Sequence record: QB031383.1
From: a phage
Direction: 5' to 3' (one strand)
Length of the DNA: 64,000 nucleotides
The first letter of the stretch is position 1. Every line of letters starts with the position of its first letter. The notes beneath the pieces were generated by a model that saw nothing but the letters and a program-made list of their open reading frames with translations, had not been told where the DNA came from and did not search any database. Positions 16,455 through 60,178 of this stretch are shown piece after piece. Position numbers and translations under genes: made by a program.

Positions 16455-16484
16455 TTGACAATATTAAACATTTTATGATAGGAT
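16455..16484 (+). promoter_or_regulatory. promoter-like element (TTGACA, -10-like TAGGAT) upstream of the 16493 gene
   Basis: TTGACA at 16455-16460; TATGA/TAGGAT block resembles the -10 region of the tRNA-array promoter motif. Confidence 0.4.
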
Positions 16485-16492
16485 AGCATTCA

Positions 16493-16885
16493 ATGACTGA
16501 ACGTTCTAAGATAGCTGTTGAAACTGTTTATGGAAACTATACCAGTTTGACACTAGTTGAGAAAAATGTTGTAGGTCTTGACAACTCTTTTTATTTTCAA
16601 ATTTTGGTTATTCAAGGTGGAAACAAGAAGCTAACTGCTCGTGTTGAAAAATCTGAAATAATTGAAACCACTGTTACAAACAAAGAATTCATTTCACTGC
16701 AAGATACAATCCGAAACGTTATAGACGAAGAAGGCAAAGCTGCCACAATTAAACTCGGAGGTTTCCCAGTGCAAATAGTTCATTTTCCTAATGGTGAAAT
16801 TGGAGTTGGAATAGGTAAAGGTAAATACCTGTTAGAGCAAGATGATATGGAAAGACTCCGTTCTTTCTGTGCAAAATTAATGTAA
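16493..16885 (+). CDS. hypothetical protein
   Basis: 130 aa ORF; start lies very close to the predicted promoter (short or no leader). Confidence 0.45.
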   Translation: MTERSKIAVETVYGNYTSLTLVEKNVVGLDNSFYFQILVIQGGNKKLTARVEKSEIIETTVTNKEFISLQDTIRNVIDEEGKAATIKLGGFPVQIVHFPNGEIGVGIGKGKYLLEQDDMERLRSFCAKLM

Positions 16886-44118: not shown

Positions 44119-45492
44119 TTAGTTTGCAGTACGGTTAGTCAGGACGTTGACCTGAACTTTAACGTAATGGAAGAAGCCAGCGTAAACATATTCAATCTTC
44201 ATCCCATCGACCAGACGAGCATTGATTTGCGCATCAGTCATATCGGCACGAGAAGGAATATAAACAATAGGTTTCAGATCGACACGCAAACCAGTCTCTT
44301 CAGAAGTAACAACTTCATTAGCGATGGAACCGTTGAGGATACCTACTTGGATCGGGTTAGCCAGAACAGCTTGTCGAATCAAAGCCAGACCGTTTGAAGT
44401 AGCACGAACACCGCCACCCAGCATAGACTGTTGTTTAAACAGTGTAAACAGTGATTCTTCTGTGCGAGCTTTAAACCACAAAGCATGAACAACATAGTCA
44501 ACAAAGAAACCGCTAACCATCAATCCATCACGATAGAACAGAGTTCCATGCTCTTTACGATAGATGTTACCGTTCTGTTGAACAATATTGTTTTCCGAAG
44601 TCTGATCCAGTTTCTCGATCTCTACACCTACCAGTGTTTTACCGTGAAGAGTAGTTAAACCAGGTTGACGAGAACAGATTGCACCAACAACTGCTGCTTC
44701 TGGGAATACAGAATCTGCATCGGTCATCCACAAAGCAAAGCAAGTGTTATTATAACCGAGGTCATTCAGTCGTTCCAGAACGTTATCTTCTGCTTTCGTT
44801 TTAATTCCAGGTTCAGAGCTAGAGAAGAAGTAAACTTTATCATTCTCTTCTACCCATGCAGCCAAAGCTAGAACATCTTCTGTTTCATGGGAATCTGAAA
44901 GGGTCCAGAACCAGCTACTATCAATATCATGCAGAGCAGCAATATCTTCCGTAATAGCATTAGCATAGACAGTTTCTTGAGTGAAACCTGTGCTGTCAAT
45001 AGAACCAAACTTACCTTCTACTGGAGTGAAAGTCATTGCAGCGCCGTTGTTAGCTACTGTAAACAGTGGGCCATAAACGAGATCTGCATTGATCATTTCA
45101 GTCAGACCAACTACAATCTCTTGTGCAGTTGCAGTGTCATCAGCAATGAATTTAAATTCTTTTTTCTTGGTACCATTTTTGATGGTAATTGTGTAAGTTG
45201 CACTATCTTCTACGATTGGAGTTAGAGTAAAGTTTGTAACTTCACGCTTACCAACCATAACTTGATCTGGTGGGAACAAACCGTTGAACAGTTTGACTGC
45301 CATAATATACGCTGGATCATTTAATCCATAACCTGCTTCCAAAAGTGCATCGGAAGAAGAGTAATATTGAATCGCTTCGCCAGTTACGTTCTGACCTGTA
45401 AGGATCAGGGGAATATCGAACTGGGTTTCACGAATTGATGTAGCACCATACAGTAAAGTTACGGTTGCTACCTTTTCACGAAAAGTTGCCAT
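44119..45492 (-). CDS. tail sheath protein
   Basis: 457 aa; size and position (before tube, chaperones, tape measure) as in contractile tails. Confidence 0.55.
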   Translation of the reverse strand: MATFREKVATVTLLYGATSIRETQFDIPLILTGQNVTGEAIQYYSSSDALLEAGYGLNDPAYIMAVKLFNGLFPPDQVMVGKREVTNFTLTPIVEDSATYTITIKNGTKKKEFKFIADDTATAQEIVVGLTEMINADLVYGPLFTVANNGAAMTFTPVEGKFGSIDSTGFTQETVYANAITEDIAALHDIDSSWFWTLSDSHETEDVLALAAWVEENDKVYFFSSSEPGIKTKAEDNVLERLNDLGYNNTCFALWMTDADSVFPEAAVVGAICSRQPGLTTLHGKTLVGVEIEKLDQTSENNIVQQNGNIYRKEHGTLFYRDGLMVSGFFVDYVVHALWFKARTEESLFTLFKQQSMLGGGVRATSNGLALIRQAVLANPIQVGILNGSIANEVVTSEETGLRVDLKPIVYIPSRADMTDAQINARLVDGMKIEYVYAGFFHYVKVQVNVLTNRTAN

Positions 45493-49535: not shown

Positions 49536-50651
49536 TTATTGTTTCTGGGCTTTTTTAAGTTCAGCAGCTTTCTGACTAATCAGTTCAGAAGAAGATTTAG
49601 CTACAGGTTGAGTATTGATCACGTCAACACCACGTTCTGTTCCAAATTCTTTCTTAACTGCGTCCACTTCTGCACGTGCTTTTTCGAATGCTTTGACGAT
49701 AGTTTCAGCGATATCTTTATTGTCTACCAGATATTTAACGAGAGCTTCAACTTTGTCTTCTTCTACGAAAGAATAGGATTTAACAACAGTTGTATATTCT
49801 TCTTCGATACGAGCTTGTTCAGCTTTACGAAGTTCTTCTGCTTCCTGTTCTGCCTTAGCGATTTTTTCCTGTGCTTCAAGTTCTGCGGCTGCACGTGCAT
49901 CTGCGGCTGCTTTTTCTACAGCTTCAGCGATCTGTGCTTTCATCAGTTCTTGGAATTCAGCAGATTTCAGGAATTCTTCTTTGTTGATATTTTCCAAAGG
50001 GGTTTCTCCTTTATTGATTCCAGTTGTGTTTGCAGATTTATCACCTGCGGGGTTAGCCTCTGCATCCACAGAGTTTGTATTAGCTTTAGCGTGAGCTTTC
50101 ACTAAATAATCTTTAACTTGACTTTGTTTCAAGGAACTCTTAACGAGATTACTCAAAGCATCGTCTAAAACGTCCTCAAAGAAATCAATGGAGATCATTA
50201 CATCACCATCAACAACTTGATAATCAGTAACACGAACAACAGGTTTAGCAACCTCTTCAACTTCAACATTCAGTCCGTCAACTTTAAAGCCAACAGAGAA
50301 CATACCGTTATCTGAACAGAAAATTGCAACGTTCGCATCGAAGTCAGCATCAATAACGTAAACCCAATCCCAACCAGCTTCAAATTTTTCACGCACTTTT
50401 TCAGAAATGCGATCCATCACTTGTTGAATATAGCTTTTACGTAACTCTGTAACATCTTCTCCCATTTTAGTGAGAGCTTCTAACTTTTCAAAAGTTATGT
50501 CTGGAGATCCGTCTGACTTAAATAAAAGGGGGGTATTATAACCAGATGCCGCTCCACCTTGAAAATCAAAAGTGTAAGCAATATGAGCACCTAGTGACTC
50601 TTCCGTAGCTTTTCCTGAAAAGTCTACGTTAGTTAAATATGTATTTGCCAC
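49536..50651 (-). CDS. head scaffolding protein
   Basis: 371 aa; long Ala/Glu/Lys-rich coiled-coil (AAELEAQEKIAKAEQEAEELRKAEQ). Confidence 0.5.
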   Translation of the reverse strand: MANTYLTNVDFSGKATEESLGAHIAYTFDFQGGAASGYNTPLLFKSDGSPDITFEKLEALTKMGEDVTELRKSYIQQVMDRISEKVREKFEAGWDWVYVIDADFDANVAIFCSDNGMFSVGFKVDGLNVEVEEVAKPVVRVTDYQVVDGDVMISIDFFEDVLDDALSNLVKSSLKQSQVKDYLVKAHAKANTNSVDAEANPAGDKSANTTGINKGETPLENINKEEFLKSAEFQELMKAQIAEAVEKAAADARAAAELEAQEKIAKAEQEAEELRKAEQARIEEEYTTVVKSYSFVEEDKVEALVKYLVDNKDIAETIVKAFEKARAEVDAVKKEFGTERGVDVINTQPVAKSSSELISQKAAELKKAQKQ

Positions 50652-50653
50652 GA

Positions 50654-51133
50654 TTAGTCCTTCTTGACTTTAACGCCCATTGCGCCTATACTCAAACCTT
50701 TAAGAACGCCGTCTTTACGAGCTTGATATAATTCAGGGTCGTTGAATTGGATTTTAACGAGGGGAGTTCCTTCCACAACGAGTTCGTCACCAATGTAACA
50801 ATCGACTTCATTTACCCAAGCTTTAATTGGAGCAAACTTATCGGTGTTCTTCATGTGACCAAGATTACCACTAATGTTGGTAATATTCTCATTGAAGTTG
50901 TCAACCATCTTCCTGATTTCCAAATCAGACATGCGCTCTCCGTGGAGATCGTCTTCTTCAGGTGGACAATACAAGACCTCAATAACCTGCATCTTTTCTT
51001 CATCAAATTTATTTTGTTTGACTAGAGTTTCAGGTTTTTGAGATGGTATAGAATCTTGTTGGGATTCAGAATTCTCTTTAAAACCAGCGAAGGTTTTGAA
51101 GAGTTCCCACAGTGTATCTTTATTGAGTTCCAT
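50654..51133 (-). CDS. head assembly protein (possible prohead protease)
   Basis: 159 aa ORF between portal and scaffold genes; own promoter-like element upstream. Confidence 0.35.
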   Translation of the reverse strand: MELNKDTLWELFKTFAGFKENSESQQDSIPSQKPETLVKQNKFDEEKMQVIEVLYCPPEEDDLHGERMSDLEIRKMVDNFNENITNISGNLGHMKNTDKFAPIKAWVNEVDCYIGDELVVEGTPLVKIQFNDPELYQARKDGVLKGLSIGAMGVKVKKD

Positions 51134-51169
51134 TTGAAACCTCTTAAAAACAGATATCCCATAAATCTT

Positions 51170-51198
51170 AGTCTACAGGATATTTGTTGTTTTGTCAA
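51170..51198 (-). promoter_or_regulatory. promoter-like element (CTATTGACAA motif, -10-like TAGACT)
   Basis: Third minus-strand copy of the aCTATTGACAa motif, between the portal and 51133 genes. Confidence 0.45.
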
Positions 51199-51226
51199 TA
51201 GAAAAATTAAAAAATATTAAATATTT

Positions 51227-52792
51227 TTAATTCGACAGGTTTTGTGCTGAAGGATCTAAAGCAGAAACAGTATCAGACGTTCCAGTTCCCGCTGTAGCTA
51301 AACCATCTCCTGATCGTGAAGTTTTGTCAGGCATATAGTTATCCATGAATTCAAAGAATTTCTCTTTATTGGCAACAATATCGTCAGGGATGCGATATTC
51401 AAAACCAATTTTTTCAAGGAACTCGTTAATAACTTCTGGGGTTAAAGGTATTGCACCAGAGGCTACCAACTGCTGAATAGCTTTAGCATTTACTTCAATA
51501 TCAGGATCACCCATTTCACCACTGACAAACTTAGGCATATCTTCATCAGAAAGGAAGATATTGTTTAGTCGTAGTGTTTGAGGGATCAGTTGAGAGTTTA
51601 TAGCTTCTACAACAATATCTACATCTCGCTCAATAAAATGAGACAATAGTGTTTGTTTGTTGTCAGAAAGCGCAAAACTTCCTGCATCACCATCACCCAT
51701 AATCAACACACCCGCACCAAAGCGGTTATAAATATCTAGCTTGCGTTGTTTGATTAGTGCTTGAGTGTCAAACTGTTTACCCGTGCCATCAACACCTTGG
51801 AATACAAGATCGTATTGACGCATCACTGTGCCTTCATAAACGTCTGAAGGCAATACCATGTAGGCTTGTTCACCAGAGTGTAGGTTAGCGATGTTGGCTT
51901 GGAGAACTCGAAGAGATTGTGCTTCATCCCCAGCAGGATCTAAAGATGCCCTGTTTAGAATGTCACTTGGAACCTTAAGAACTGGCATACCGCCTAAATC
52001 TTTAGATACCCCAATAACCTCAAATTCCTGAATAAGAGATTTTTCACGCCAGCTACGATATACAGCTAACAGCGGACTAACTCCTAATGGGTTATTCTCT
52101 GTAATGTTGCTACCAACAAATAAAACTTTACTGAAAGGAATTTCTTTAATACCCGTTTCTAAAGTTGTATTACCTGGAGCTAACATCGTATTGGTGATAT
52201 TCTGGTTAACAGATAGAATAGAACGTCCGTCTGCCGAATATGTAAAAGGTTGAGCCATGTGAAGAGTATCTTGTGGTCTAAAAGCCAGTTTGGTCAATCG
52301 CCAATACCCAAAGTAAGGACTTTTAGGATCTTCATCCAACTCATAAACTTTCTCTGCGAATGCAAAACCATATTGCTTATATGTCAAAAGTGATCTAACA
52401 TATTGACGTAGAGGGGCTTGCATATTGCGCAACATGTAATCAATAAACTTAGCAGCTTTTCTTGACTTTGCCGAGTTTACATTGTATTTTATCTTGAAAT
52501 CAAAGAATGCTCTATCTACAAAGATATATGTAGCGTCAAGAGCAGTAGCTACATCAGGGTCTTCACCCATCTCTTTAAAAGTGCGAATACATTCTGGGAA
52601 ACGAGTCTCATAGGGTTGCATGAAATTCGTAAATGCTTTGATTGAGTTTAATCCGATCGTTCCTATTTCAGGTGACAGGAGTAACGTTTTCTCTTTCTCT
52701 GCCTCTTTTGTTGGAGAGAGAGCAGCTTTATTTGCAGCACCTTTGTCCCAGTATTCTGACTTTTTAGTGTACGTTCTTTTTCCTGTTGACAC
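51227..52792 (-). CDS. portal protein
   Basis: 521 aa; GTG start after GGAGGA; immediately downstream of the terminase large subunit. Confidence 0.65.
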   Translation of the reverse strand: MSTGKRTYTKKSEYWDKGAANKAALSPTKEAEKEKTLLLSPEIGTIGLNSIKAFTNFMQPYETRFPECIRTFKEMGEDPDVATALDATYIFVDRAFFDFKIKYNVNSAKSRKAAKFIDYMLRNMQAPLRQYVRSLLTYKQYGFAFAEKVYELDEDPKSPYFGYWRLTKLAFRPQDTLHMAQPFTYSADGRSILSVNQNITNTMLAPGNTTLETGIKEIPFSKVLFVGSNITENNPLGVSPLLAVYRSWREKSLIQEFEVIGVSKDLGGMPVLKVPSDILNRASLDPAGDEAQSLRVLQANIANLHSGEQAYMVLPSDVYEGTVMRQYDLVFQGVDGTGKQFDTQALIKQRKLDIYNRFGAGVLIMGDGDAGSFALSDNKQTLLSHFIERDVDIVVEAINSQLIPQTLRLNNIFLSDEDMPKFVSGEMGDPDIEVNAKAIQQLVASGAIPLTPEVINEFLEKIGFEYRIPDDIVANKEKFFEFMDNYMPDKTSRSGDGLATAGTGTSDTVSALDPSAQNLSN

Positions 52793-52861
52793 TTGTTCCT
52801 CCAGTCAGGTATAAAATCGTTAAGGCAAGGCTGTATTATATACAACCTCACCTATCTAGTT

Positions 52862-52890
52862 ATAATACACTTTAAAGTGACTTTTGTCAA
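52862..52890 (-). promoter_or_regulatory. sigma70-like promoter (TTGACA-17-TATTAT) upstream of portal
   Basis: Read on the reverse complement in the terminase-portal intergenic region. Confidence 0.55.
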
Positions 52891-52893
52891 CAA

Positions 52894-54969
52894 TTATCTT
52901 TTACGGACACTATACGGTTGGTGAAATCCGCTGTTCATTCTACTGTATCCTGTAGGAGCATTTGTTGTTGTAGGGATAGCTACTGCCTTGAAAGTATTCT
53001 CTTTTGACAGAGTATTAAAACAAGAGGCAGCAGCATCGGGAATGTCATCTTTAATAGTGGCTGTAGATCTTTCACCATTGAAAGATTCCAATTCTTTATA
53101 AAAGTGGGTTAAAGTTTCCACATTAGGGAAAGAATCTTCAACAATATAAACAAAACCGTTTTGACACGCACTACTAAAAGGCATAAAACGCTGAAGCTTT
53201 TTCTTGTTGCCTGGCATAGCATCTGGTTTAACAACAAAACCTTCCAGAATAAGTTTCTTTGCAGACTCTGTATATTCTATTGTCCCAGCACCAGATGGGT
53301 CTTTAGGAAGAACTACTGTAACTTCTGGTCCATCGATCTTACATTGATTTAGAATCAGGTTATCCCTTTCCCCAGGTAGTCTTCGAAACCTTCCAAAAAT
53401 TTTACTTTTCTCATCCACAGCATCATAATCATAGTCGCCAAAGATGTAGATATTACCATCTTGGTCTTTACCCATTTTGACAGATGTTGTATAGTCTGGA
53501 TAACGGTAAGTTTCTGTAGGAACTGAAACAGCTTTATCCCATGCTCGCATTAGTTTAAGATTGTTAGGAACATCTTTATAAGATATTTTATGTAACCATT
53601 CACGTTGAAAGAAAGATTCTTTCTGAATACGTGCAAACCAACAACCGTCCAGAAGCTGTGCTCTTTTAATCGCTGTTTGTGATTTAAGCTGTGCTAAGTA
53701 ATTAGGGTTAAGCCTAATGAGTTCTGGGTTATCAAATATTGTCCCACCAATAAATACGAAAGTTTGTGGTTCAATAACAACTGTCTCCCCTGTATTAGGG
53801 TTTTCCATGAAACAGTTTTCTGGATATTTTTCTTTCAGTTCTTCAGGTGTGTCAGCAAAAACAGGTTCATCGTTAACAATGATGAAATATTTTTGTTTAC
53901 CACACATATCTTCTCTAGGATAACCACCCTCATCAAGATAAGGTAACACCCAATTCAAAACCCAACTATCTGCGTCAGGGTTACATGTGCACAACATGAA
54001 ACTTGTTTCTGACTCTGAACGCATACGTCCCAGAAGATAGAGCATTTCATATTGTGTGAAGTGGGTTAACTCGTCAAAACCTACCATTGAATACTGTGTA
54101 CCCTGATGGTTTGTTTCTGCTGTTACGTTATCATTTTCCAAATGGTCAAATTTGAGGGTTCCACCACCAGTGGCTTCAAAAATGATATCCATTGTACTTT
54201 CTTTTACGTGCGGTTGTAAAGGAAGATACAAACGTTTTGCTTCTGTAAACAGACCACCTGGTTTACGGTGAGCAGTGGTGTTCTTACGGAAAAGTATTCC
54301 ACCAAACAAAGGGTCTTTGTAGGCGTATTTTAAAGCTTTCAGCAATAGCAGACGAGACTTGCCGCTATTCCCAGTAACGAAGCAGTGATCGCCACGTCTA
54401 AAGACAATATAGCTGCTTGGAGTCTCAAAACAATATTTCTTATCATCTGTTGAAATAACCTCGTGTATTTTTAAGTAAGTGCTCTTTTTACCAGGTATGT
54501 TAAAAGGAACACGTTTACCGAATGGATTTTCTACATAACCTTGCAGGGGTTTTCCTATTTGCTGTAATGCAATAAGATCTCCTACAAGAATCTCGAAATG
54601 TTTCTTTGATTTCTTTTTCTTATAGAATACAAAACGGTGTTCCATACTAAGTTCTTGGAACAATCCTACACCATTTGTTATTCTGTATAGGTTATCTCCA
54701 TTTAAATCGTATTCTACAAAATAAGGTGTTACCAATTCTAAACGCTTATTCTTAGGATTGTATTGGTAAATATCCTCTCCAGAATATTCACTAATCTGTC
54801 TCCAACCATCTTTTGTAAGATATTCTGTTTCAGCAGAAACACATCCAGCGGCACCACCATAAATCATAACTTCTGGCATTAAATCCATTGCAAGAGTCTG
54901 TTTACCTGGTTGAGCCTTTACTTCAATATCTACTCCAGCTAAACTACCTGCTGCCTTTTTCTTTGCCAC
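52894..54969 (-). CDS. terminase large subunit interrupted by a mini-intein
   Basis: 691 aa; Walker A split as GGAAG | intein | SGKS; Walker B VGFDELTHF; the intein-free size (~532 aa) is typical. Confidence 0.8.
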   Translation of the reverse strand: MAKKKAAGSLAGVDIEVKAQPGKQTLAMDLMPEVMIYGGAAGCVSAETEYLTKDGWRQISEYSGEDIYQYNPKNKRLELVTPYFVEYDLNGDNLYRITNGVGLFQELSMEHRFVFYKKKKSKKHFEILVGDLIALQQIGKPLQGYVENPFGKRVPFNIPGKKSTYLKIHEVISTDDKKYCFETPSSYIVFRRGDHCFVTGNSGKSRLLLLKALKYAYKDPLFGGILFRKNTTAHRKPGGLFTEAKRLYLPLQPHVKESTMDIIFEATGGGTLKFDHLENDNVTAETNHQGTQYSMVGFDELTHFTQYEMLYLLGRMRSESETSFMLCTCNPDADSWVLNWVLPYLDEGGYPREDMCGKQKYFIIVNDEPVFADTPEELKEKYPENCFMENPNTGETVVIEPQTFVFIGGTIFDNPELIRLNPNYLAQLKSQTAIKRAQLLDGCWFARIQKESFFQREWLHKISYKDVPNNLKLMRAWDKAVSVPTETYRYPDYTTSVKMGKDQDGNIYIFGDYDYDAVDEKSKIFGRFRRLPGERDNLILNQCKIDGPEVTVVLPKDPSGAGTIEYTESAKKLILEGFVVKPDAMPGNKKKLQRFMPFSSACQNGFVYIVEDSFPNVETLTHFYKELESFNGERSTATIKDDIPDAAASCFNTLSKENTFKAVAIPTTTNAPTGYSRMNSGFHQPYSVRKR
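54367..54843 (-). other. mini-intein (~159 aa) inserted in the terminase Walker A motif
   Basis: Begins with Cys (CVSAETEYLTKDG), has block B-like TxxH (SMEHRF), ends ...FVTGN followed by Ser; no homing endonuclease domain. Confidence 0.6.
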
Positions 54970-54978
54970 ATTCCCTCC

Positions 54979-55323
54979 TTATTCAGCAATAATACCTTTT
55001 TCTTGCAGTGTTTTAATATATGTTTGTAAACCTAGAACCTTTCGTCTATCTTGCTCCCAAAGAGCATTGTTTTGAGTTTGGTTGTTAACAACTTCAGATC
55101 TACTAACCCCTTTTGCAATTTGATTTTTAGTGTATGGCACAGGTGTCGATACTTTATCCATCAAGTCCGAATCTGGACCTTTAACCTTTTCTATGGCTAC
55201 AGCCTTACACTCATCAATAAGAACTGGGGAAACTTTTGTTGATGATGAACAACCCGTCATCATTAGGGGCAAAGCAAGACATACTGCCAGAATTAGTTTT
55301 TGCATAATTCGTTGTATCCTCAT
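54979..55323 (-). CDS. o-spanin (outer-membrane lipoprotein, Rz1-like)
   Basis: Signal peptide with lipobox LMMTGC; embedded out of frame in the 3' part of the i-spanin gene. Confidence 0.55.
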   Translation of the reverse strand: MRIQRIMQKLILAVCLALPLMMTGCSSSTKVSPVLIDECKAVAIEKVKGPDSDLMDKVSTPVPYTKNQIAKGVSRSEVVNNQTQNNALWEQDRRKVLGLQTYIKTLQEKGIIAE

Positions 55324-55606
55324 TGATCGTTTGTTTCTTCTTCTCTAAATCTGCTTTTAATTGTGCATTGTTTTTAGACAAGTTGTTTATTTGAGTATTT
55401 AATAATGCTCTTTCTTCATCCGCTCTTTTTTGAAGAACATCGAAATCTTGTTTTGCTTTTGCTTGGGCTGCTTGATATACTTGCGTTTGATAGGCAACAC
55501 CATCTTTGTAGCCAGACTCACGTATCTTGTTATAAGCAAACATTCCGGCAAGAATAAGAACAACAATTAAAACAAAACTTAATACAGTTTTAGTCTTTAG
55601 ATTCAT
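55214..55606 (-). CDS. i-spanin (Rz-like)
   Basis: 130 aa; N-terminal TM helix (VLSFVLIVVLILAGMF) followed by coiled-coil periplasmic domain. Confidence 0.55.
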   Translation of the reverse strand: MNLKTKTVLSFVLIVVLILAGMFAYNKIRESGYKDGVAYQTQVYQAAQAKAKQDFDVLQKRADEERALLNTQINNLSKNNAQLKADLEKKKQTINEDTTNYAKTNSGSMSCFAPNDDGLFIINKSFPSSY

Positions 55607-55650
55607 TATCTTCTACTTCCTCATAAAATTTTATTTTAGGAAGAGAAGGG

Positions 55651-55821
55651 GCGTTGTTAACTATCTTCTTCACTTCCATTGGTTGAGCCTCCGCTAGGAT
55701 CTCTTCCCAAGTCTTCTCTGTCATCATAAAGTTCTTCCTCCAAGTTCCAAACCCGTGTGTAATCATTCTTTTTATCTTTATGATAAGAAGAACGGTTAAA
55801 ATCATTTTTAACTACAAAATT
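55651..55821 (-). CDS. hypothetical small protein (alternative overlapping frame 55590-55805 also possible)
   Basis: 56 aa ORF with GAGGAGG RBS; the overlapping 71-aa frame also has a GGAGGAAG RBS, so the true frame is unresolved. Confidence 0.3.
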
Positions 55822-55881
55822 GCGCATATTTTATCCTCCTCATATCTGATCTTATCACAAAATGATATACAATTGCAAGCA

Positions 55882-55918
55882 TTAAAAATAAAAAAGCCCC
55901 TAACCTTTCGGAGAGGGG
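55882..55918 (-). terminator. rho-independent terminator after the 55968-56264 gene
   Basis: Minus strand CCCCUCUCC-GAAA-GGUUAGGGG followed by a long U-run. Confidence 0.6.
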
Positions 55919-55967
55919 TGTTAAAAATAACAAGGAGGAGGGGCAAAGCCCCAAGAGAGGAGAGGGA

Positions 55968-56264
55968 TTAGATTACGATCTTTTTAGGAACGTCATCTGT
56001 ATTCTGCACGGCAGGGGTTTCTTCTTCCATAGCTTCATAATGTTCTTCTAACCATTCTTCTACTTGCTCTTTAATAGCTTTAGCTGCTTGGAAGCGGAGA
56101 GGTTTTGCTGCATCCTTATCATTAACAAGTTCAACAATATATCGCATAGCTTCTAAATAATGCTCTGCAAATAATTCTTTTACACTTGCTTGCGCCGCAT
56201 CCATTGCGTAGATCTGTTGCATTTCGGCTGTTGGTCTTCCACGACCACGTTTTAGTTTAGGCAT
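55968..56264 (-). CDS. hypothetical protein
   Basis: 98 aa; AGGAGGATTT RBS; basic N-terminus KLKRGRGRP. Confidence 0.45.
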   Translation of the reverse strand: MPKLKRGRGRPTAEMQQIYAMDAAQASVKELFAEHYLEAMRYIVELVNDKDAAKPLRFQAAKAIKEQVEEWLEEHYEAMEEETPAVQNTDDVPKKIVI

Positions 56265-56329
56265 AATAAAATCCTCCTAAACTTTATCTTAACATATAAA
56301 AAATAATAAGTCAAGTTTTATTCAATAGA

Positions 56330-56356
56330 TAGCAAAAAGCCTCCAATAAGGAGGCT
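56330..56356 (-). terminator. rho-independent terminator at the downstream end of the tRNA array
   Basis: Minus strand AGCCUCC-UUAUU-GGAGGCU followed by UUUUUGCU. Confidence 0.7.
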
Positions 56357-56471
56357 AATAAATACTGTTAATTTGAAATGCTTTATTATAATTGTGCGTT
56401 AAGGAGTCGCACCCCTCCATCTTAGAAGGAACCAGGCAAGGTCTTCAAAGATACCGCTGGCAAGCGATATT

Positions 56472-56550
56472 TGGAGGCGGGAATCGGATTTGAACCGATG
56501 ATCTCCAGCATATGAAACTGGCGAGGACGACCAGACTCCTCTATCCCGCT
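56472..56550 (-). tRNA. tRNA-Met (anticodon CAT)
   Basis: Hand-folded cloverleaf: T-arm ATCGG-TTCAAAT-CCGAT, anticodon loop TTCATAT, CCA encoded; 1-72 position appears mismatched (A/C). Confidence 0.55.
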
Positions 56551-56552
56551 AT

Positions 56553-56627
56553 TATGTATCCCGTGCTGGATTCGAACCAGCATCACAATAAGCTGTGGAA
56601 CTCTTATCCTGTAAGTCTAACGGGAAA
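56553..56627 (-). ncRNA. tRNA-like element, anticodon arm not resolvable (possible pseudo-tRNA)
   Basis: Canonical T-arm GCTGG-TTCGAAT-CCAGC and 6-bp acceptor, packed between two tRNAs, but no standard D/anticodon arms. Confidence 0.3.
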
Positions 56628-56628
56628 C

Positions 56629-56702
56629 TGGTTGTTTCGACAAGAATCGAACTTGTGTCTCACGATTATCAGTCGTGGGTTCTACCATTGAACTACGAAA
56701 CA
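56629..56702 (-). tRNA. tRNA-Ile (anticodon GAT)
   Basis: Acceptor TGTTTCG/CGAAACA, D-arm GTTC-AATGGTA-GAAC, anticodon stem CACGA/TCGTG with loop CTGATAA, T-loop TTCGATT, CCA encoded. Confidence 0.7.
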
Positions 56703-56708
56703 TTTGAT

Positions 56709-56785
56709 TGGTCGGAATTGCAGGATTCGAACCTGCGACCCTACGCTCCCAAAGCGTATGCTCTACCAAACTGAGCTAAATTCCG
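56709..56785 (-). tRNA. tRNA-Pro (anticodon TGG)
   Basis: Acceptor CGGAATT/AATTCCG, D-arm GCTC-AGTTTGGTA-GAGC, anticodon loop TTTGGGA, T-arm GCAGG-TTCGAAT-CCTGC, CCA encoded. Confidence 0.75.
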
Positions 56786-56790
56786 TTATA

Positions 56791-56866
56791 TGGCTGGTCT
56801 GTCTGGATTTGAACCAAACCTACGACAGTCAAAGTGTCGTGTGCTACCGGACTACACTACAAACCA
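56791..56866 (-). tRNA. tRNA-Gln (anticodon TTG)
   Basis: Acceptor with U1-A72, anticodon stem CGACA/TGTCG with loop CTTTGAC, T-loop TTCAAAT, discriminator G, CCA encoded. Confidence 0.7.
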
Positions 56867-56964
56867 ATAAATCATTTAATGAAGGGCAACCAGAAGAGGT
56901 GTGAGAGAAGGAGAAAACCATGAGTAAAAGAGAAAGTTTTCTGGCAACCCTTTATTAAATAATT

Positions 56965-57038
56965 TGGAGCGTTCTACGAGGATCGAACTCGTGCCGCCGA
57001 CTTGGAAGGACGGAATGCTACCGCTACACCAAGAACGC
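56965..57038 (-). tRNA. tRNA-Gly (anticodon TCC)
   Basis: Acceptor GCGTTCT/AGAACGC, anticodon loop CTTCCAA, T-arm ACGAG-TTCGATC-CTCGT, discriminator U, CCA encoded. Confidence 0.6.
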
Positions 57039-57049
57039 CCTACATCTTT

Positions 57050-57079
57050 ACTATACTACATTTTACTATTGGTTGTCAA
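57050..57079 (-). promoter_or_regulatory. promoter-like element (aCTATTGACAa, -10-like TATAGT) directly upstream of tRNA-Gly
   Basis: Minus strand TTGACA-18-TATAGT; one of four copies of the same -35-containing motif. Confidence 0.5.
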
Positions 57080-57352
57080 TAGTTTTATTGAGCGGGACAG
57101 TGACGAGTATCCCATTGGGTGACTAGCCCTACGTTCGGTAAGCTAACTTAAAATAATACAAAACCAAAGTCAAATATTATTCTTCGTTGCTGTCGATGGG
57201 AGAGCCGCTTCTTCTTTTGCCCCATCCAACCCTACTCCGGTCAAGTTTCAGGTAACTCTTTTTGTGATCAACACAATACTAAGAACACTGTCTTTCGAGC
57301 AGACCTTGTGCACAGGATACGACGATCAATCACAGTGCTCTTAATGTTGTGT

Positions 57353-57427
57353 TGGTGCTCCCACTCTGAATCGAACAGAGATCCACGGATTACAAAACCG
57401 TTGTAATAGCCATTATACTATAGGAGC
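57353..57427 (-). tRNA. tRNA-Thr (anticodon TGT)
   Basis: Acceptor GCTCCTA/TGGGAGC (one G-U), anticodon loop TTTGTAA, T-arm CTCTG-TTCGATT-CAGAG, CCA encoded. Confidence 0.6.
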
Positions 57428-57433
57428 AAAGCT

Positions 57434-57511
57434 GGGACTCGGCAGGATTCGATACCTGCAATTCCAGAAGCCTCTTGGCGACTGGGGGGTTTACCTTAAC
57501 TCTACAAGTCC
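57434..57511 (-). ncRNA. tRNA-like element with 8-nt T-loop and no recognisable anticodon arm (possible pseudo-tRNA)
   Basis: 7-bp acceptor GGACTTG/CGAGTCC and T-arm GCAGG-TATCGAAT-CCTGC; internal region forms a long imperfect hairpin instead. Confidence 0.3.
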
Positions 57512-57518
57512 ATAATTC

Positions 57519-57604
57519 TGGCGATGAGTATAGGATTTGAACCTATATCGTTCTTTCGAACACGGATTAACAGTCCGCCGCTTAAACCATTCAGCCAACT
57601 CATC
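57519..57604 (-). tRNA. tRNA-Asn (anticodon GTT) with an unusually long variable arm
   Basis: Perfect acceptor GATGAGT/ACTCATC, Asn-type anticodon arm GCGGA-CTGTTAA-TCCGT, discriminator G, CCA encoded; 15-nt variable region GTTC-GAAA-GAAC. Confidence 0.55.
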
Positions 57605-57610
57605 TTAATT

Positions 57611-57698
57611 TGGTGGTGAGTGATGGAGTCGAACCACCCGAATCGCAATGATAACAGATTTACAGTCTGCCCCGCTACCCCTACGGAATTAACTCACC
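57611..57698 (-). tRNA. tRNA-Tyr (anticodon GTA), type II
   Basis: Acceptor GGTGAGT/ACTCACC, anticodon arm GCAGA-CTGTAAA-TCTGT, long variable arm, T-loop TTCGACT, CCA encoded. Confidence 0.65.
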
Positions 57699-57828
57699 TA
57701 AATACTAATATTTAAATTCTTTTTAAAATAGCCAGTGTTCACACCACTAACTATGAGTTATCGGTAAAGTGGTTACCGCCACTTGCCGAAGATTTACTCT
57801 GCTAAAGTAAGCTATATTAAAAAGAACT

Positions 57829-57914
57829 TGGCGGTAGATGTAGGACTCGAACCTACACGCCGTTTCCGACTACAGTTTAGCAAACTGTCGTGGCTACCAT
57901 TTCACCAATCTACC
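57829..57914 (-). tRNA. tRNA-Ser (anticodon GCT), type II
   Basis: Acceptor GGTAGAT/ATCTACC, anticodon stem ACAGT/ACTGT with loop TTGCTAA, long variable arm, T-arm GTAGG-TTCGAGT-CCTAC, CCA encoded. Confidence 0.7.
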
Positions 57915-57918
57915 AATC

Positions 57919-58009
57919 TGGCGGAAGGAGGGAGAGTCGAACTCCCAAGGCTCTTTCAAGCTCGGCGGTTTTCAAGACCGTTTTCGTCGCCACGTCGATT
58001 TGCCCTTCC
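57919..58009 (-). tRNA. tRNA-Ser (anticodon TGA), type II
   Basis: Acceptor GGAAGGG/TCCTTCC, anticodon loop CTTGAAA, long variable arm, T-arm GGGAG-TTCGACT-CTCCC, CCA encoded; D-arm atypical. Confidence 0.55.
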
Positions 58010-58018
58010 ATACTTATA

Positions 58019-58047
58019 ATCTAACATAAAATAATGTTAGTTGTCAA
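58019..58047 (-). promoter_or_regulatory. promoter-like element (aCTATTGACAa, -10-like TTAGAT) upstream of tRNA-Ser
   Basis: Minus strand TTGACA-17-TTAGAT; shares the TATG-TTAG block with the 58605 copy. Confidence 0.5.
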
Positions 58048-58243
58048 TAGTTTTTTAAAACATTTTACCATGAATGGTGACTCCACCAACCCCCGTTCTC
58101 AACGAACGGTGCTCTTCGAGCATTTATGTCTTCTAATATAACCGTGGCCTTTGTTTATAATGTCTGACATACTTGCCTCATTCTCTGCCACCATGATCAG
58201 TAGTGGGTTCAAATCACTTGAGCTAATTCATGTTAAAATGTTC

Positions 58244-58318
58244 TGGTGTCTTTACAAGGAATCGAACCTTGACTAAGAGTTTAGAAGACTCCTGTGCTAT
58301 CCATTACACCATAAAGAC
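58244..58318 (-). tRNA. tRNA-Arg (anticodon TCT)
   Basis: Acceptor GTCTTTA/TAAAGAC, D-arm GTGT-AATGGATA-GCAC, anticodon loop CTTCTAA, T-arm CAAGG-TTCGATT-CCTTG, CCA encoded. Confidence 0.7.
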
Positions 58319-58320
58319 GT

Positions 58321-58395
58321 TGGTGGCCCTGGCTGGTTTCGATCCAGCTACCTATCGGTTATGAGCCGACAGCTCTCCCATTGAGCTACAGGGCC
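58321..58395 (-). tRNA. tRNA with CAT anticodon (Met or lysidine-type Ile2)
   Basis: Acceptor GGCCCTG/CAGGGCC, D-arm GCTC-AATGGGA-GAGC, anticodon loop CTCATAA, non-canonical T-loop ATCGAAA, CCA encoded. Confidence 0.6.
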
Positions 58396-58604
58396 ATAAA
58401 TGTGGTAACAGAGACGCTGACGATTGTAGAGAACCGCTACATTCTCTAAGACCAAGCCCAACTTTCAGCGTAAAAGTTCTTGAGCCGAGACTATTCCTTT
58501 TCCTCTTTGGTAGCTAACCTCTGAAGAAGTAGTCTCTAACACTACCGCAGTGCAAGCCCCTCTTAACAAAAGTCAACGACCCTGTTACCACACTTGATGA
58601 ACGT

Positions 58605-58633
58605 ATCCTAACATATGAAGGATACGTTTGTCA
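58605..58633 (-). promoter_or_regulatory. promoter-like element (aCTATTGACAa, -10-like TTAGGA) at the upstream end of the tRNA array
   Basis: Minus strand TTGACA-17-TTAGGA; would transcribe the structured spacer and the tRNAs. Confidence 0.45.
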
Positions 58634-58641
58634 ATAGTTAT

Positions 58642-58890
58642 TTAAGCATATTCTGCTACTTCTTCACTATCTTTCTTTTCCAGAAGAGCAACAACCAAAG
58701 CTTCTGCGTTAAAAGTATTAATTTCAAGATCCATCTCTCGCATCAGAGCCAAGAAATCAATAACTTTAACATCTTTAGTGATTACAATAGAAGTTGTACC
58801 ATTGTTTTCAGATGTGTATTTTTCTGGATGGAAAAGAAAAACTGCATTGCCGTTACCATCTTCAAACACGTGTTTTTCTAATAGAGACAT
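58642..58890 (-). CDS. hypothetical protein
   Basis: Start set at the internal ATG preceded by AGGAGGAAC (82 aa) rather than the longer track ORF. Confidence 0.4.
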   Translation of the reverse strand: MSLLEKHVFEDGNGNAVFLFHPEKYTSENNGTTSIVITKDVKVIDFLALMREMDLEINTFNAEALVVALLEKKDSEEVAEYA

Positions 58891-58898
58891 TGTTCCTC

Positions 58899-59150
58899 CT
58901 AATCTGTTAGTTGTTCGTCCTCTACCAAGTTTGACACGAGAACGTCTGTTATACATTGATGCTGATAAACCCTTTCGGGACTATCATCAAAAGCCAAACC
59001 TGTGCAAATAGAACAGAGGTCTGATTCCTTGATGACTCCATTTTTATCACGTCTGGAGTGGTTTGTCAAATGCCTATTACAAGCACGGCACCTAAAATAA
59101 AAGCTATTTTGCATATATCCTTCGAACCCCAAATGGGGAGTGATCGGCAT
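58899..59150 (-). CDS. hypothetical Zn-finger protein
   Basis: 83 aa; CRACN...CSIC cysteine pairs. Confidence 0.4.
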   Translation of the reverse strand: MPITPHLGFEGYMQNSFYFRCRACNRHLTNHSRRDKNGVIKESDLCSICTGLAFDDSPERVYQHQCITDVLVSNLVEDEQLTD

Positions 59151-59187
59151 CTCCTCACTTCTAGTTTAGCACGAAGGATATCTTAAG

Positions 59188-59373
59188 TCAACTAGGAATA
59201 ATTTTATCCTTTTTGGTTTCATAACCAGTCCAATCTAAATCCTCCCAGCCTTCATCATCGTCTAACACATTGTCATCATCATAAGATGCAATGTTATAAA
59301 TAGAACGTGGATTACAAGACATACAATCTTTAATAGGCACATGATGCCATTTGCACGGATTCTCGCTAATCAT
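59188..59373 (-). CDS. hypothetical small acidic protein
   Basis: 61 aa; GGAGGTG RBS; first gene of the leftward unit leaving the divergent region. Confidence 0.45.
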   Translation of the reverse strand: MISENPCKWHHVPIKDCMSCNPRSIYNIASYDDDNVLDDDEGWEDLDWTGYETKKDKIIPS

Positions 59374-59405
59374 TGCACACCTCCATTCTTGTTAAGATGT
59401 TCCGT

Positions 59406-59434
59406 ACTGTACTTCATACTGATCTATAGATCAA
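59406..59434 (-). promoter_or_regulatory. leftward promoter candidate (TTGATC-17-TACAGT) in the divergent control region
   Basis: Read on the reverse complement; spacer contains the palindrome GATCTATAGATC. Confidence 0.45.
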
Positions 59435-59781
59435 GTATTATTTATAATAATTTATTATTTTATTTTTAATTGATAGAAGTTGATCTGTACGTACCAGTTC
59501 TGATACACTGTACCTGTTTGTTAGATCTAATAATTATTTATTATTAATATTTAATAATTATTAATCTAGTACGGAGTACAGTACTTGAGTACAGAGTACT
59601 ACATCAACAACCTAAAACCTTAACTCGCTGCGCTCGTTAATAGATTTCTAGGGTAGCATACTTCGAACACAAAAGTCAAGAGTTTTATTAAAAATTATTT
59701 TCTGTGTGCAAAAACCTTGCTTAAACAGGTAGCAATAGTATAGCCTATAACATAAGCTTCATAAGAGGCTCGTAGAGCAAG

Positions 59782-59810
59782 TTTACTTACTAGGTAAGGT
59801 GATTTATCAT
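59782..59810 (+). promoter_or_regulatory. rightward promoter candidate (TTTACT-17-TATCAT)
   Basis: Upstream of the first plus-strand small gene (RBS AGGAGG, ATG 59855). Confidence 0.35.
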
Positions 59811-59854
59811 CTTATATATAAAAAGTGAGTCAGAGACGCGTTTAGGAGGCTAGA

Positions 59855-60178
59855 ATGAGATTTACAAGACAAGAGGTAGTTGTGCTGGACGAAGCAATGA
59901 CAATGATCGTCTTTTACTATGAGGATATCTTCTGTGCAGCATATCATTTAAATGACATTCAGATTGAATGGCAGCAGATAGCATTCCTGTTGGACAAGAG
60001 TAATCATTTGGATGGCTTTGAGTATTTGGAGTGGGATGGTGCAAAGGAAGTTAAAATTGTAGGGTTAAATCACGATCAGATTGTTGACATGCAATGTAAG
60101 TTGTGTCATTATCAGTTCTCAAACAAAGTCAAACTCGAAAGGCAATTGGAGGTGGTTAAAGATGATAGCACTAATTAG
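59855..60178 (+). CDS. hypothetical protein
   Basis: 107 aa ORF with TAGGAGG RBS. Confidence 0.45.
   Translation: MRFTRQEVVVLDEAMTMIVFYYEDIFCAAYHLNDIQIEWQQIAFLLDKSNHLDGFEYLEWDGAKEVKIVGLNHDQIVDMQCKLCHYQFSNKVKLERQLEVVKDDSTN

Follow-up and report, generated by a model that had tools for sequence, protein, structure and literature searches.

Four intergenic sites on the minus strand of a phage genome, which share the motif CTATTGACA and are located in the tRNA array and the head module, are very probably strong promoters for the host sigma-70 RNA polymerase and not members of a new phage-specific class. Their promoter function is well supported, as inferred from their placement and from the conservation of their orthologs; with regard to class, each conserved part of the sites matches ordinary recognition by the sigma-70 polymerase, which argues against a class of their own. 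In a preliminary description of this DNA, the motif had been taken for a phage-specific promoter class rather than for generic sigma-70 sites. The promoter part of that proposal finds good support, since the sites are intergenic, co-oriented with genes, and conserved; the phage-specific part is not, since the triplet CTA in front of the −35 hexamer is unconserved, the motif is rare, and the extended block TATGTTAG is a host motif.

Genomes Compared

The window, i.e., the whole stretch of 64,000 nucleotides that was analyzed (sequence record QB031383.1), derives from a Phapecoctavirus (phAPEC8-like) myophage of E. coli and is 99.7% identical to phage ECO340P2. For genome-wide counts, the complete genome of phage anhysbys (149 kb; 99% identical to the window) was used as reference. 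Orthologous sites were compared in the lineages L006, L007, L009, L011, and L017 (phage nepoznato), the diverged ones having a TerL identity of 85–90%, and, for the site at 58629, in L006, phiWec179, and PsgM04F. About 70% of the phage's proteins are without annotation, and among the approximately 270 coding sequences of phage anhysbys, most of which encode hypothetical proteins, neither an RNA polymerase nor a sigma factor is annotated. A literature search, part of which was loosely specified, did not retrieve transcriptomics or start-site mapping for Phapecoctavirus or Stephanstirmvirinae. The record of phage ASO2A contains only terminators and no promoter in the corresponding region; nine promoters are reported in the accompanying paper.

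Occurrence of the Motif

By exact search, CTATTGACA is found six times in the window, always on the minus strand, with start positions 32993, 44994, 51193, 57074, 58042, and 58629. The expectation from shuffled sequences is 0.54, and none of 100 shuffles reaches six copies; when one mismatch is allowed there is no excess in the window (21 matches versus 21.3 expected). Four of the six copies (51193–51201, 57074–57082, 58042–58050, and 58629–58637) are intergenic, co-oriented with genes, and followed after 17-18 nt by a hexamer of the type TAnnnT; the corresponding promoters are designated P51193, P57074, P58042, and P58629. The preliminary description had correctly recognized these four copies and a −10-like hexamer behind each of them. 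The hexamers are TAGACT after 17 nt and TATAGT, TAGATT, and TAGGAT after 18 nt, respectively. The positions it gave for an 11-nt form of the motif were 1-2 nt too low, and at 51193 the base in front of the motif is t instead of a.

The two copies within coding sequences had been missed. One of them (32993–33001, minus strand) lies inside an ORF (31644–33806) and is unconvincing as a promoter, because the A-tract is missing and only a weak TACTTT hexamer is present; this copy does not occur in the genome of phage anhysbys. The other (44994–45002, minus strand), inside the tail-sheath gene (44119–45492), is ruled out as a promoter, there being no A-tract upstream and no −10-like hexamer at 16–18 nt; it is kept in phage anhysbys as coding sequence. 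In all 149 kb of phage anhysbys, CTATTGACA occurs only six times, five copies being promoter-like and one being located in the sheath gene. The fifth promoter-like copy sits in the early region; the other four lie within 8 kb.

Promoter Architecture and Conservation

A profile was derived from 33 intergenic promoter-like sites of phage anhysbys, which are composed of an A-tract, three unconserved bases, TTGACA, a spacer of 16–18 nt, often TGn (15 of 33 sites), and TAnnnT. At positions −10 to −4 relative to the −35 hexamer, A accounts for 48–73% of the bases, and C and G are nearly missing. Positions −3 to −1 are unconserved over the 33 sites, with CTA found in five of them versus about one expected by position-wise chance.

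All four CTATTGACA promoters possess a −35 hexamer, TTGACA, with six of six consensus bases. The UP-like tract reads AAATAA at P58629, AAAAAA at P58042, and AATAAAA at P57074, and is a T-rich tract at P51193. The extended −10 sequence TATGt is found at P58042 and P58629, not at P51193 and P57074. As had been noted before, these two sites share the block TATGTTAG (58021–58028 and 58608–58615), which is TRTGn plus TAG, i.e., the extended −10 motif of E. coli fused to the −10 hexamer. The similar plus-strand block TATGATAGGAT at 16474–16484 is likewise present and constitutes the 3′ end of a promoter of the form TTGACA-18-TAGGAT (16455–16484). The discriminators of the four promoters are AT-rich; those of stringently controlled host tRNA promoters are GC-rich.

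Each of these elements has a predicted counterpart in the host polymerase. The C-terminal domain of the alpha subunit would contact the A-tract, which lies at about −45 to −39 (4-10 nt before the −35 hexamer) and is similar to a proximal UP-element subsite; the consensus −35 hexamer would be bound by sigma region 4. At two of the four sites, TATGt, which conforms to the TRTGn extended −10, would interact with sigma region 3, and the TAnnnT hexamers TAGGAT, TAGATT, TAGACT, and TATAGT would be recognized by sigma region 2. The shortcomings of imperfect −10 hexamers and 18-nt spacers would be made up for by the full-consensus −35 hexamer in combination with the A-tract and TGn.

In the diverged lineages, orthologous promoters are found at the same place with a spacer length within 1 nt, nearly all of them with TTGACA and TAnnnT. 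The spacer sequence and the flanks diverge, while the distance to the tRNA 5′ end largely holds. CTA is replaced by GTA, GTG, CTC, or TAC in the orthologs of L006, L007, and L011, and only close relatives, nepoznato for instance, have kept it. Most likely, this triplet fills an otherwise unconstrained position, as a mark of common descent or local homogenization in the phAPEC8 lineage and not as a recognition element. Since CTA is commoner than position-wise chance would predict, the five CTA sites are probably related by descent or by local sequence homogenization.

Predicted Transcription of the tRNA Array

The tRNA array, extending from 58637 down to a terminator at 56338–56356 that closes it, would be organized in three nested transcription units, starting from P58629, P58042, and P57074. 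The first unit would comprise a structured leader of 200 nt, tRNA-Met, and tRNA-Arg; the second would have its start some 2 nt ahead of a tRNA-Ser(UGA)-like gene, and the third 3-5 nt ahead of tRNA-Gly.

P58629 (58605–58643, minus strand) has the structure AAATAA-CTA-TTGACA-18 nt-(TATGt)TAGGAT, with the −10 hexamer at 58605–58610 and a predicted start at about 58598; the promoter lies 5 nt past the stop codon of ORF 58642–58956. In its ortholog (L006, phiWec179, PsgM04F), TTGACA and TGtTAAGAT are kept, the spacer is 17 nt, and CTA is changed to GTA. The spacer is filled by a perfect 10-bp inverted repeat (58600–58628, minus strand; AACGTATCCT-9 nt-AGGATACGTT) that also holds most of the −10 hexamer; it is matched by none of 1000 dinucleotide shuffles (p ~0.003 with hexamers fixed). 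In the L006 lineage the arms read AGCGTGTCTT/AAGATACGCT, and the repeat survives by means of one G.T pair and two compensatory pair changes, of which one falls within the −10 hexamer. Between the predicted start and tRNA-Met, a leader RNA of about 200 nt (58396–58599, minus strand) would fold into a structure closed by a helix of 22 bp, with several hairpins inside it; of the 70 pairs predicted by RNAalifold, ten show compensatory changes among only three distinct sequences. The leader has no Rfam match, only tRNAs and sub-threshold noise being returned at E ≤ 1 over 50500–60000. A covariance model of the leader (R1) retrieved it only from phAPEC8-type lineages and gave neither paralogs nor copies beyond them, and a pattern scan of IMG/VR with its 5′ part returned nothing beyond one already-known contig. 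Other helix-closed spacers are present in the array.

P58042 (58018–58056, minus strand) reads AAAAAA-CTA-TTGACA-18 nt-(TATGt)TAGATT. Its hexamer (58018–58023) ends 8 nt before the tRNA-Ser(UGA)-like gene (57923–58009, minus strand), so that the start is predicted at about 58011, some 2 nt before that gene. The distance is also 8 nt in L006 and L011 and amounts to 15 nt in L007 and L009; in nepoznato the −10 hexamer is followed by an identical ataagtat-GGAAGG. The upstream triplet of the orthologs is CTA, GTG, or TAC, and the ortholog in L011 combines a poorer −35 hexamer, TTGCTT, with an extended −10, TGaTAAGAT. The tRNA-Ser(UGA)-like gene has an atypical D-arm and is not called by ARAGORN in the window; it scores 37.4 bits with the Rfam tRNA-Sec model, which is under the threshold of that model. 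At the corresponding position, tRNA-Ser-TGA is annotated in phage ASO2A, and the orthologs of L006, L007, and L011 are recognized by ARAGORN.

P57074 (57050–57089, minus strand) reads AATAAAA-CTA-TTGACA-18 nt-TATAGT, with the hexamer at 57050–57055 and a predicted start at about 57041–57043, ahead of tRNA-Gly (56965–57038). A 7-bp inverted repeat, ACTATTG/CAATAGT, overlaps its −35 hexamer (p = 0.04). L006, L017, L007, L009, and L011 all keep TTGACA and TA(T/G)AGT, separated by a spacer of 18 nt. The Vequintavirinae Mydo, BIS47, GAP31, and PVP-SE1 were discarded from this comparison: because tRNA-Gly directly follows tRNA-Ile there, they have no orthologous promoter. Promoters of the same style occur elsewhere in their arrays. 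Both acquisition and loss of cassettes and of homing-endonuclease genes are seen in the tRNA arrays of these phages.

Two further minus-strand sites had been passed over by the preliminary description. One, of the same style, comes after the terminator at 56338–56356 and lies upstream of ORF 55968–56264 (56286–56314; TTGACT-17 nt-(TATGt)TAAGAT); the other, which is weaker and was read from the sequence, comes after a terminator and precedes lysis genes assigned as spanins by PHROG matches (55849–55878; TTGCAA-18 nt-(TGa)TAAGAT). Between the −10 hexamer of the plus-strand promoter at 16455–16484 (TTGACA-18 nt-(TATGa)TAGGAT) and the ATG of ORF 16493–16885 there are 8 nt without a Shine-Dalgarno sequence, which makes a leaderless mRNA probable; the relative annotates the same start (gp003).

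Predicted Promoters of the Head Module

P51193 (51154–51210, minus strand) is located between the portal gene (51227–52792) and a gene (50654–51133) that matches head-maturation-protease PHROGs. It consists of a T-rich tract-CTA-TTGACA-17 nt-TAGACT, with the hexamer at 51170–51175 and a start expected at about 51163, and CTA is GTA in six of six relatives. The 30-nt block 51154–51183 (about −20 to +10) and TATTGACAAA are invariant in seven sequences whose flanks are about 80–87% identical, and the block carries ATATCC-18 nt-GGATAT. Further copies of this block or its halves, as might be expected of a late-promoter motif, were found neither in the window nor in the 149-kb genome of the relative. 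The invariance of the block exceeds what sigma-70 recognition alone requires.

The more canonical TTGACA-17-TATTAT site upstream of the portal gene, which had also been described previously, is confirmed in the sequence. This promoter, P52885 (52862–52890, minus strand), lies between the large terminase gene (52894–54969) and the portal gene, and its start is expected at about 52855; L006, L007, L009, and L011 retain GATAAnTnTTGACAAAA along with a −10 hexamer. Together with this neighbor, P51193 would provide transcription from within the head-assembly module, ahead of the prohead-protease-like gene. A consensus sigma-70 promoter before head genes is unexpected under a simple early/late scheme.

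Alternative Readings

If aCTATTGACAa and TATGTTAG defined a phage-specific class, the sites would be read with the help of a phage factor, such as a sigma appropriator, an activator, or a new sigma factor, and would follow a temporal programme of their own. Such a reading could draw on the surplus of CTA (five of 33 sites versus about one expected), on the clustering of the four copies in the tRNA and head region, on the many phage proteins of unknown function, among which a specificity factor may be hidden, and on spacers of 17-18 nt, as against 16 nt at about 20 early-region promoters, which carry a conserved transcribed leader. It is nevertheless very unlikely, because the CTA extension is not kept in the relatives' orthologous promoters, only five promoter-like copies of the motif exist in the genome of anhysbys, whose annotation lists neither a polymerase nor a sigma factor, TATGTTAG is accounted for by TRTGn and −10 motifs of the host, and every conserved position coincides with a sigma-70 or alpha contact. 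It is extremely improbable that the motif is devoid of promoter activity and belongs to a dispersed repeat, or to the scar of a duplication, next to tRNA cassettes. P57074 and P58042 do have 16 identical bases in common, AAAACTATTGACAAC, their longest shared stretch, within a 23-nt repeat, and tRNA cassettes and homing-endonuclease genes come and go in these arrays; however, the likeness between copies stops at the promoter core, one copy (51193) lies outside the array before the head-protease gene, and a fifth is found in the early region of the relative. Diverged lineages, moreover, retain the promoter with a near-equal spacer and tRNA distance while the surrounding sequence turns over, which points to selection on promoter function.

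Recognition by sigma-70 would also be compatible with an added layer of control, at least at P58629 and P51193, formed by a palindrome, a hairpin, or a protein-binding site over the −10 hexamer and the start. It could be an operator, a supercoil-sensitive cruciform, or, in read-through RNA, a hairpin for processing or 3′-end protection. The palindrome at 58600–58628, unmatched in 1000 shuffles and maintained in L006 by two compensatory changes, speaks for it, as do the invariance of 51154–51183 with its internal ATATCC/GGATAT repeat, the persistence, in four lineages and with differing sequences, of an inverted repeat across the −35 hexamer at the tRNA-Gly promoter, and an annotated promoter of PVP-SE1 whose spacer repeat, CAGAGA/TCTCTG, covaries in GAP31 and Mydo. 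This reading is rather unlikely all the same. Inverted repeats are not enriched over 36 predicted promoters when hexamers are fixed (four with p < 0.05 versus about two expected; Fisher p = 0.19), so that as a general trait they were rejected, the idea surviving for P58629 and, with less force, P57074. Since the palindromes are unlike one another in both sequence and geometry, regulation by one shared factor is unlikely; TTGaCAA forms a palindrome by itself, and CA...TG will pair in any case; and the covariation comes from two or three independent lineages. The hairpins were rejected as intrinsic terminators on either strand, as none in the window is followed by an adequate U-run. Quite unlikely, too, is the more specific possibility that the P58629 palindrome and the P51193 block represent an undescribed control device, be it a regulator or a DNA/RNA hairpin switch, that times the tRNA and head genes, with starts 2-5 nt before tRNA 5′ ends giving nearly leaderless tRNAs that would depend little on RNase P.

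Comparison with Known Systems

For the preferred reading, i.e., promoters of the host sigma-70 polymerase, the closest models are E. coli promoters with an UP element and an extended −10 motif. In E. coli, the proximal UP subsite of the rrnB P1 type is AAAAAARNR at −46 to −38, and TRTGn defines the extended −10 class. The phage sites agree with these promoters in TTGACA, the 17-18 nt spacer, TAnnnT, TRTGn in two of four cases, and the A-tract at about −45 to −39. They differ in the A-tract, which lies about 1-2 nt nearer to the hexamer than the proximal subsite of textbooks, in discriminators that are rich in AT instead of GC, and in −10 hexamers that read TAGGAT, TAGATT, or TAAGAT in place of TATAAT. 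The T4 tRNA cluster is transcribed by the host polymerase together with small stable RNAs (species 1 and 2). The array described here likewise contains predicted structured non-tRNA segments (the leader 58396–58599 and other helix-closed spacers); there is no sequence relationship to T4.

Phages of the sister subfamily are described as depending wholly on the host polymerase and as having sigma-70-like promoters with UP elements (PMC7344957, PMC3606486). For Certrevirus (Vequintavirinae), which lacks a phage polymerase, a putative early promoter with an UP element, AAAA(N3-4)TGTTGAC(N17-19)TATAAT, has been described (PMC7344957). Members of this genus resemble the present phage in being myophages of about 145 kb without an RNA polymerase of their own, with an A-tract and a short fixed extension before the −35 hexamer in 13–21 copies per genome; in contrast, the extension is TG where it is CTA here, and the sites are concentrated in the early and middle regions (PMC7344957), whereas the CTA variant has just five copies, with sites in the head module and the tRNA array. 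In phage rV5 there are 33 predicted sigma-70-like promoters genome-wide, 11 of them with an extended −10, including TTGACA...TGTATAGGAT (PMC3606486, Table S4). Similar sequences, such as AAAATTAAGC-TTGACA-...TGTA-TAGGAT, are found there, although rV5 belongs to another subfamily and no CTATTGACA subgroup has been reported for it (PMC3606486). The authors of that study concluded that the specificity of the host polymerase may not be modified and proposed a T4-late-like motif, TggTAaAAtA, upstream of late genes (PMC3606486).

Implications

The main practical value of these results lies in annotation, as the genus is widely isolated, includes therapeutic candidates, and is represented by records without promoter features in this region (e.g., ASO2A). 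They provide a usable promoter model, AAAAWAA-N3-TTGACA-N16-18-(TGn)TAnnnT, and a prediction of three nested units in the tRNA array. They also correct an over-reading, in that a common flank around a consensus hexamer need not imply a new promoter class. Should a regulatory role be established for the palindrome and for the invariant block, both could serve as entry points to the timing of expression in a phage group without known late-transcription machinery.

The Promoter-Like Motif in the Window and in a Complete Genome

The 9-mer CTATTGACA occurs six times in the window, always on the minus strand, versus 0.54 copies expected, and six copies were reached in 0 of 100 shuffles; since no excess was found in the window when one mismatch was allowed, the signal resides in the exact 9-mer. 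Four copies are intergenic, at 51193, 57074, 58042, and 58629 (hereafter P51193, P57074, P58042, and P58629); these are the sites named in the preliminary description, which placed the 11-mers 1-2 nt too low. Each is followed after 17-18 nt by a -10-like hexamer, namely, TAGACT, TATAGT, TAGATT, and TAGGAT, respectively, the last two being preceded by TG. The extended block common to two sites (TATGTTAG at 58021-58028 and 58608-58615), the similar plus-strand block TATGATAGGAT at 16474-16484, and a fifth, more canonical promoter, TTGACA-17-TATTAT at 52862-52890 (P52885), were likewise found as described. The two other copies of the 9-mer (32993 and 44994) are located within coding sequence and have neither an A-tract nor a convincing -10 hexamer.

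From these features a phage-specific promoter class had been proposed, which did not hold at the level of the genome. The complete genome of the near-identical phage anhysbys (149,335 bp; 99.2% identical over the test region) contains only six copies of CTATTGACA, corresponding to the four promoter sites of the window, a copy in the tail-sheath coding sequence, and one extra promoter-like site outside the window (TTGACA-17-TATTAT), upstream of an early-region gene. A scan of this genome for TTGAC(A/T)-16 to 18 nt-TAnnnT, restricted to intergenic, co-oriented positions, yielded 36 sites, 33 of which were profiled. Positions -10 to -4 before the -35 hexamer are 48-73% A, with C and G almost absent, while the triplet at -3 to -1 is not conserved; an A directly follows the -35 hexamer in 16/33 sites, and 15/33 have TGn ahead of the -10 hexamer. 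On the basis of this profile, the general promoter of the phage is AAAAWAA-N3-TTGACA-N16-18-(TGn)TAnnnT, with CTA as one of the triplets found at N3. This triplet is present in 5 of the 33 sites, versus about one expected by position-wise chance, and two CTA sites have 16 identical bases in common (AAAACTATTGACAAC), so that a relationship through common descent or local homogenisation is likely.

Among the promoters of the genome, a different family is the most uniform, comprising about 20 early-region sites outside the window (anhysbys 44.4-53.4 kb) with an A-tract, TTGACA, a 16-nt spacer, and TAAGAT or TAAACT, followed by the conserved transcribed sequence gtatcacatagggcgg(c/g)aatggtgcc. As the latter is able to fold into a hairpin close to the 5' end, it may serve as an mRNA-stabilising or regulatory leader.

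Conservation in Related Lineages

Relatives were obtained by a large-terminase search of IMG/VR (82-90% protein identity), with phiWec179, PsgM04F, and nepoznato added from GenBank. The tRNA-Gly promoter P57074 is kept in five lineages as TTGACA, exactly 18 nt, and TA(T/G)AGT, preceded by CTA, CTC, or TAC. At the tRNA-Ser(UGA) promoter P58042, TTGACA-18-TGtTAGATT is kept with CTA, GTG, or TAC; the -10 end lies 8 nt ahead of the tRNA in four lineages and 15 nt ahead in one, and the ortholog of one lineage combines a poorer -35 with an extended -10, TAAGAT. The L006 lineage has GTA and TTGACA-17-TGtTAAGAT in place of P58629. At P51193, TATTGACAAA and the -10 hexamer are invariant in 7/7 sequences, the triplet being GTA in 6/6 relatives, and P52885 is kept in all lineages. 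These comparisons show selection on position, on spacing, and nearly always on the hexamers, but not on the CTA extension, which is replaced by GTA, GTG, CTC, or TAC.

Comparison with Host Promoters

Each extension attributed to a phage-specific class has an explanation in terms of E. coli promoters. TATGt corresponds to TRTGn, the extended -10 motif; TTGACA and TAnnnT are the sigma-70 hexamers; and the A-tract, at about -45 to -39, is similar to the proximal UP-element subsite. No conserved element is left that requires a phage-specific recogniser, and neither an RNA polymerase nor a sigma factor is annotated in anhysbys, where most proteins are hypothetical. Promoters of the sister subfamily have been described in the same sigma-70 terms: phage rV5 has 33 sigma-70-like promoters, 11 with an extended -10, including TTGACA...TGTATAGGAT (PMC3606486), and Certrevirus has the putative promoter AAAA(N3)TGTTGAC(N19)TATAAT plus an UP element and lacks a phage polymerase (PMC7344957). 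The window sites are very probably real promoters and, very probably, belong to the ordinary sigma-70 type of the host, which has been reported before in related phages.

Gene Layout and Predicted Transcription Units

Over 50500-59500, the window shares 99.7% identity with Escherichia phage ECO340P2 and no less than 98.6% with any of the 25 best-matching phage records, almost all of which belong to Phapecoctavirus (phAPEC8-like, Stephanstirmvirinae; ~150 kb). With gene names transferred from the RefSeq annotation of phage Mt1B1_P17, the minus strand carries the large terminase (52894-54969), the portal (51227-52792), and further head genes. The 159-aa protein encoded at 50654-51133 (minus) is labelled "DNA methyltransferase" in RefSeq relatives; because it matches head-maturation-protease PHROGs and its gene is placed between portal and head genes, this label was probably carried over in error from a family of fusion proteins.

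The tRNA array occupies 56472-58395 (minus). ARAGORN found 10 tRNAs, and Rfam added a tRNA-Tyr-like (57614-57698) and a tRNA-Ser(UGA)-like element (57923-58009), both minus strand and missed by ARAGORN in the window, which are annotated as tRNAs in some relatives and as pseudo-tRNAs in others. The D-arm of the Ser-like element is atypical, yet the position of its upstream promoter is conserved across lineages. Across lineages with 85-90% TerL identity, the number of tRNA genes varies between about 10 and 19, pointing to a rapid turnover of cassettes; insertion differences among the arrays involve an HNH endonuclease gene and small opposite-strand ORFs (nepoznato, L017 1790-2308; PsgM04F, L016 4026-4344).

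No start-site data for the genus Phapecoctavirus were found in the literature, and we therefore infer starts, units, and internal promoters. Promoter geometry predicts starts at ~58598, 58011, 57041-57043, and 51163, two of which would lie only 2-5 nt ahead of a tRNA 5' end. The array is closed by a good terminator (56338-56356) and would therefore be read as three nested units, and P51193 and P52885 would act within the head module as internal promoters. Two predicted minus-strand promoters of similar design, at 56286-56314 and 55849-55878, each lie just after a terminator.

On the plus strand, the promoter TTGACA-18-TGaTAGGAT (16455-16484) ends 8 nt ahead of the ATG of ORF 16493-16885; an equal distance separates the -10 of P58042 from the 5' end of the tRNA-Ser-like element. 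Since the sequence between 16484 and this ATG contains no Shine-Dalgarno, a leaderless or nearly leaderless mRNA is predicted. Divergent transcription units are separated by 481 bp of non-coding DNA (59374-59854), a candidate control region or origin of replication, in which direct repeats rich in GTACT (gtactctgtactcaagtactgtactccgtactag) occur along with long palindromic stretches of A and T only; at the equivalent position of anhysbys, RefSeq has a repeat_region.

Structured RNA Candidates and Local Promoter Features

Between P58629 and the first tRNA-Met, a leader of ~200 nt (58396-58599, minus) is predicted to form a multi-helix fold that is closed by a 22-bp helix and contains several hairpins. 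Compensatory changes affect 10/70 predicted pairs among only three distinct sequences. The leader has no match in Rfam, is found only in phAPEC8-type lineages, and is reminiscent of the small stable RNAs encoded in the tRNA cluster of T4. Three other minus-strand spacers of the array are predicted to be closed by 17-23-bp helices: 58059-58242 (17 nt, 94% complementarity), 57714-57829 (19 nt, 89%), and 57269-57354 (23 nt, 87%). In the first, the closing helix shows a single compensatory change, and a stretch of 22 nt has 86% identity to a portion of tRNA-Ile. These spacers may represent decayed tRNAs, sites of processing, or additional structured RNAs.

P58629 overlaps a perfect 10-bp palindrome (58600-58628), matched by 0/1000 shuffles; the larger part of the -10 hexamer falls within its right arm, and the L006 lineage retains the palindrome via one G.T and two compensatory changes. 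A 7-bp inverted repeat at P57074 overlaps the -35 hexamer (p = 0.04), with different inverted repeats in the same place in its orthologs. At P51193, a 30-nt block (51154-51183) is invariant in seven sequences and has no second copy in the genome. When the 36 predicted promoters were tested together, inverted repeats were not enriched (Fisher p = 0.19), and these features are thus local rather than shared by a class. For P58629 and P51193, a further layer of regulation is possible but unproven, and these local oddities of otherwise ordinary promoters are worth an experiment.
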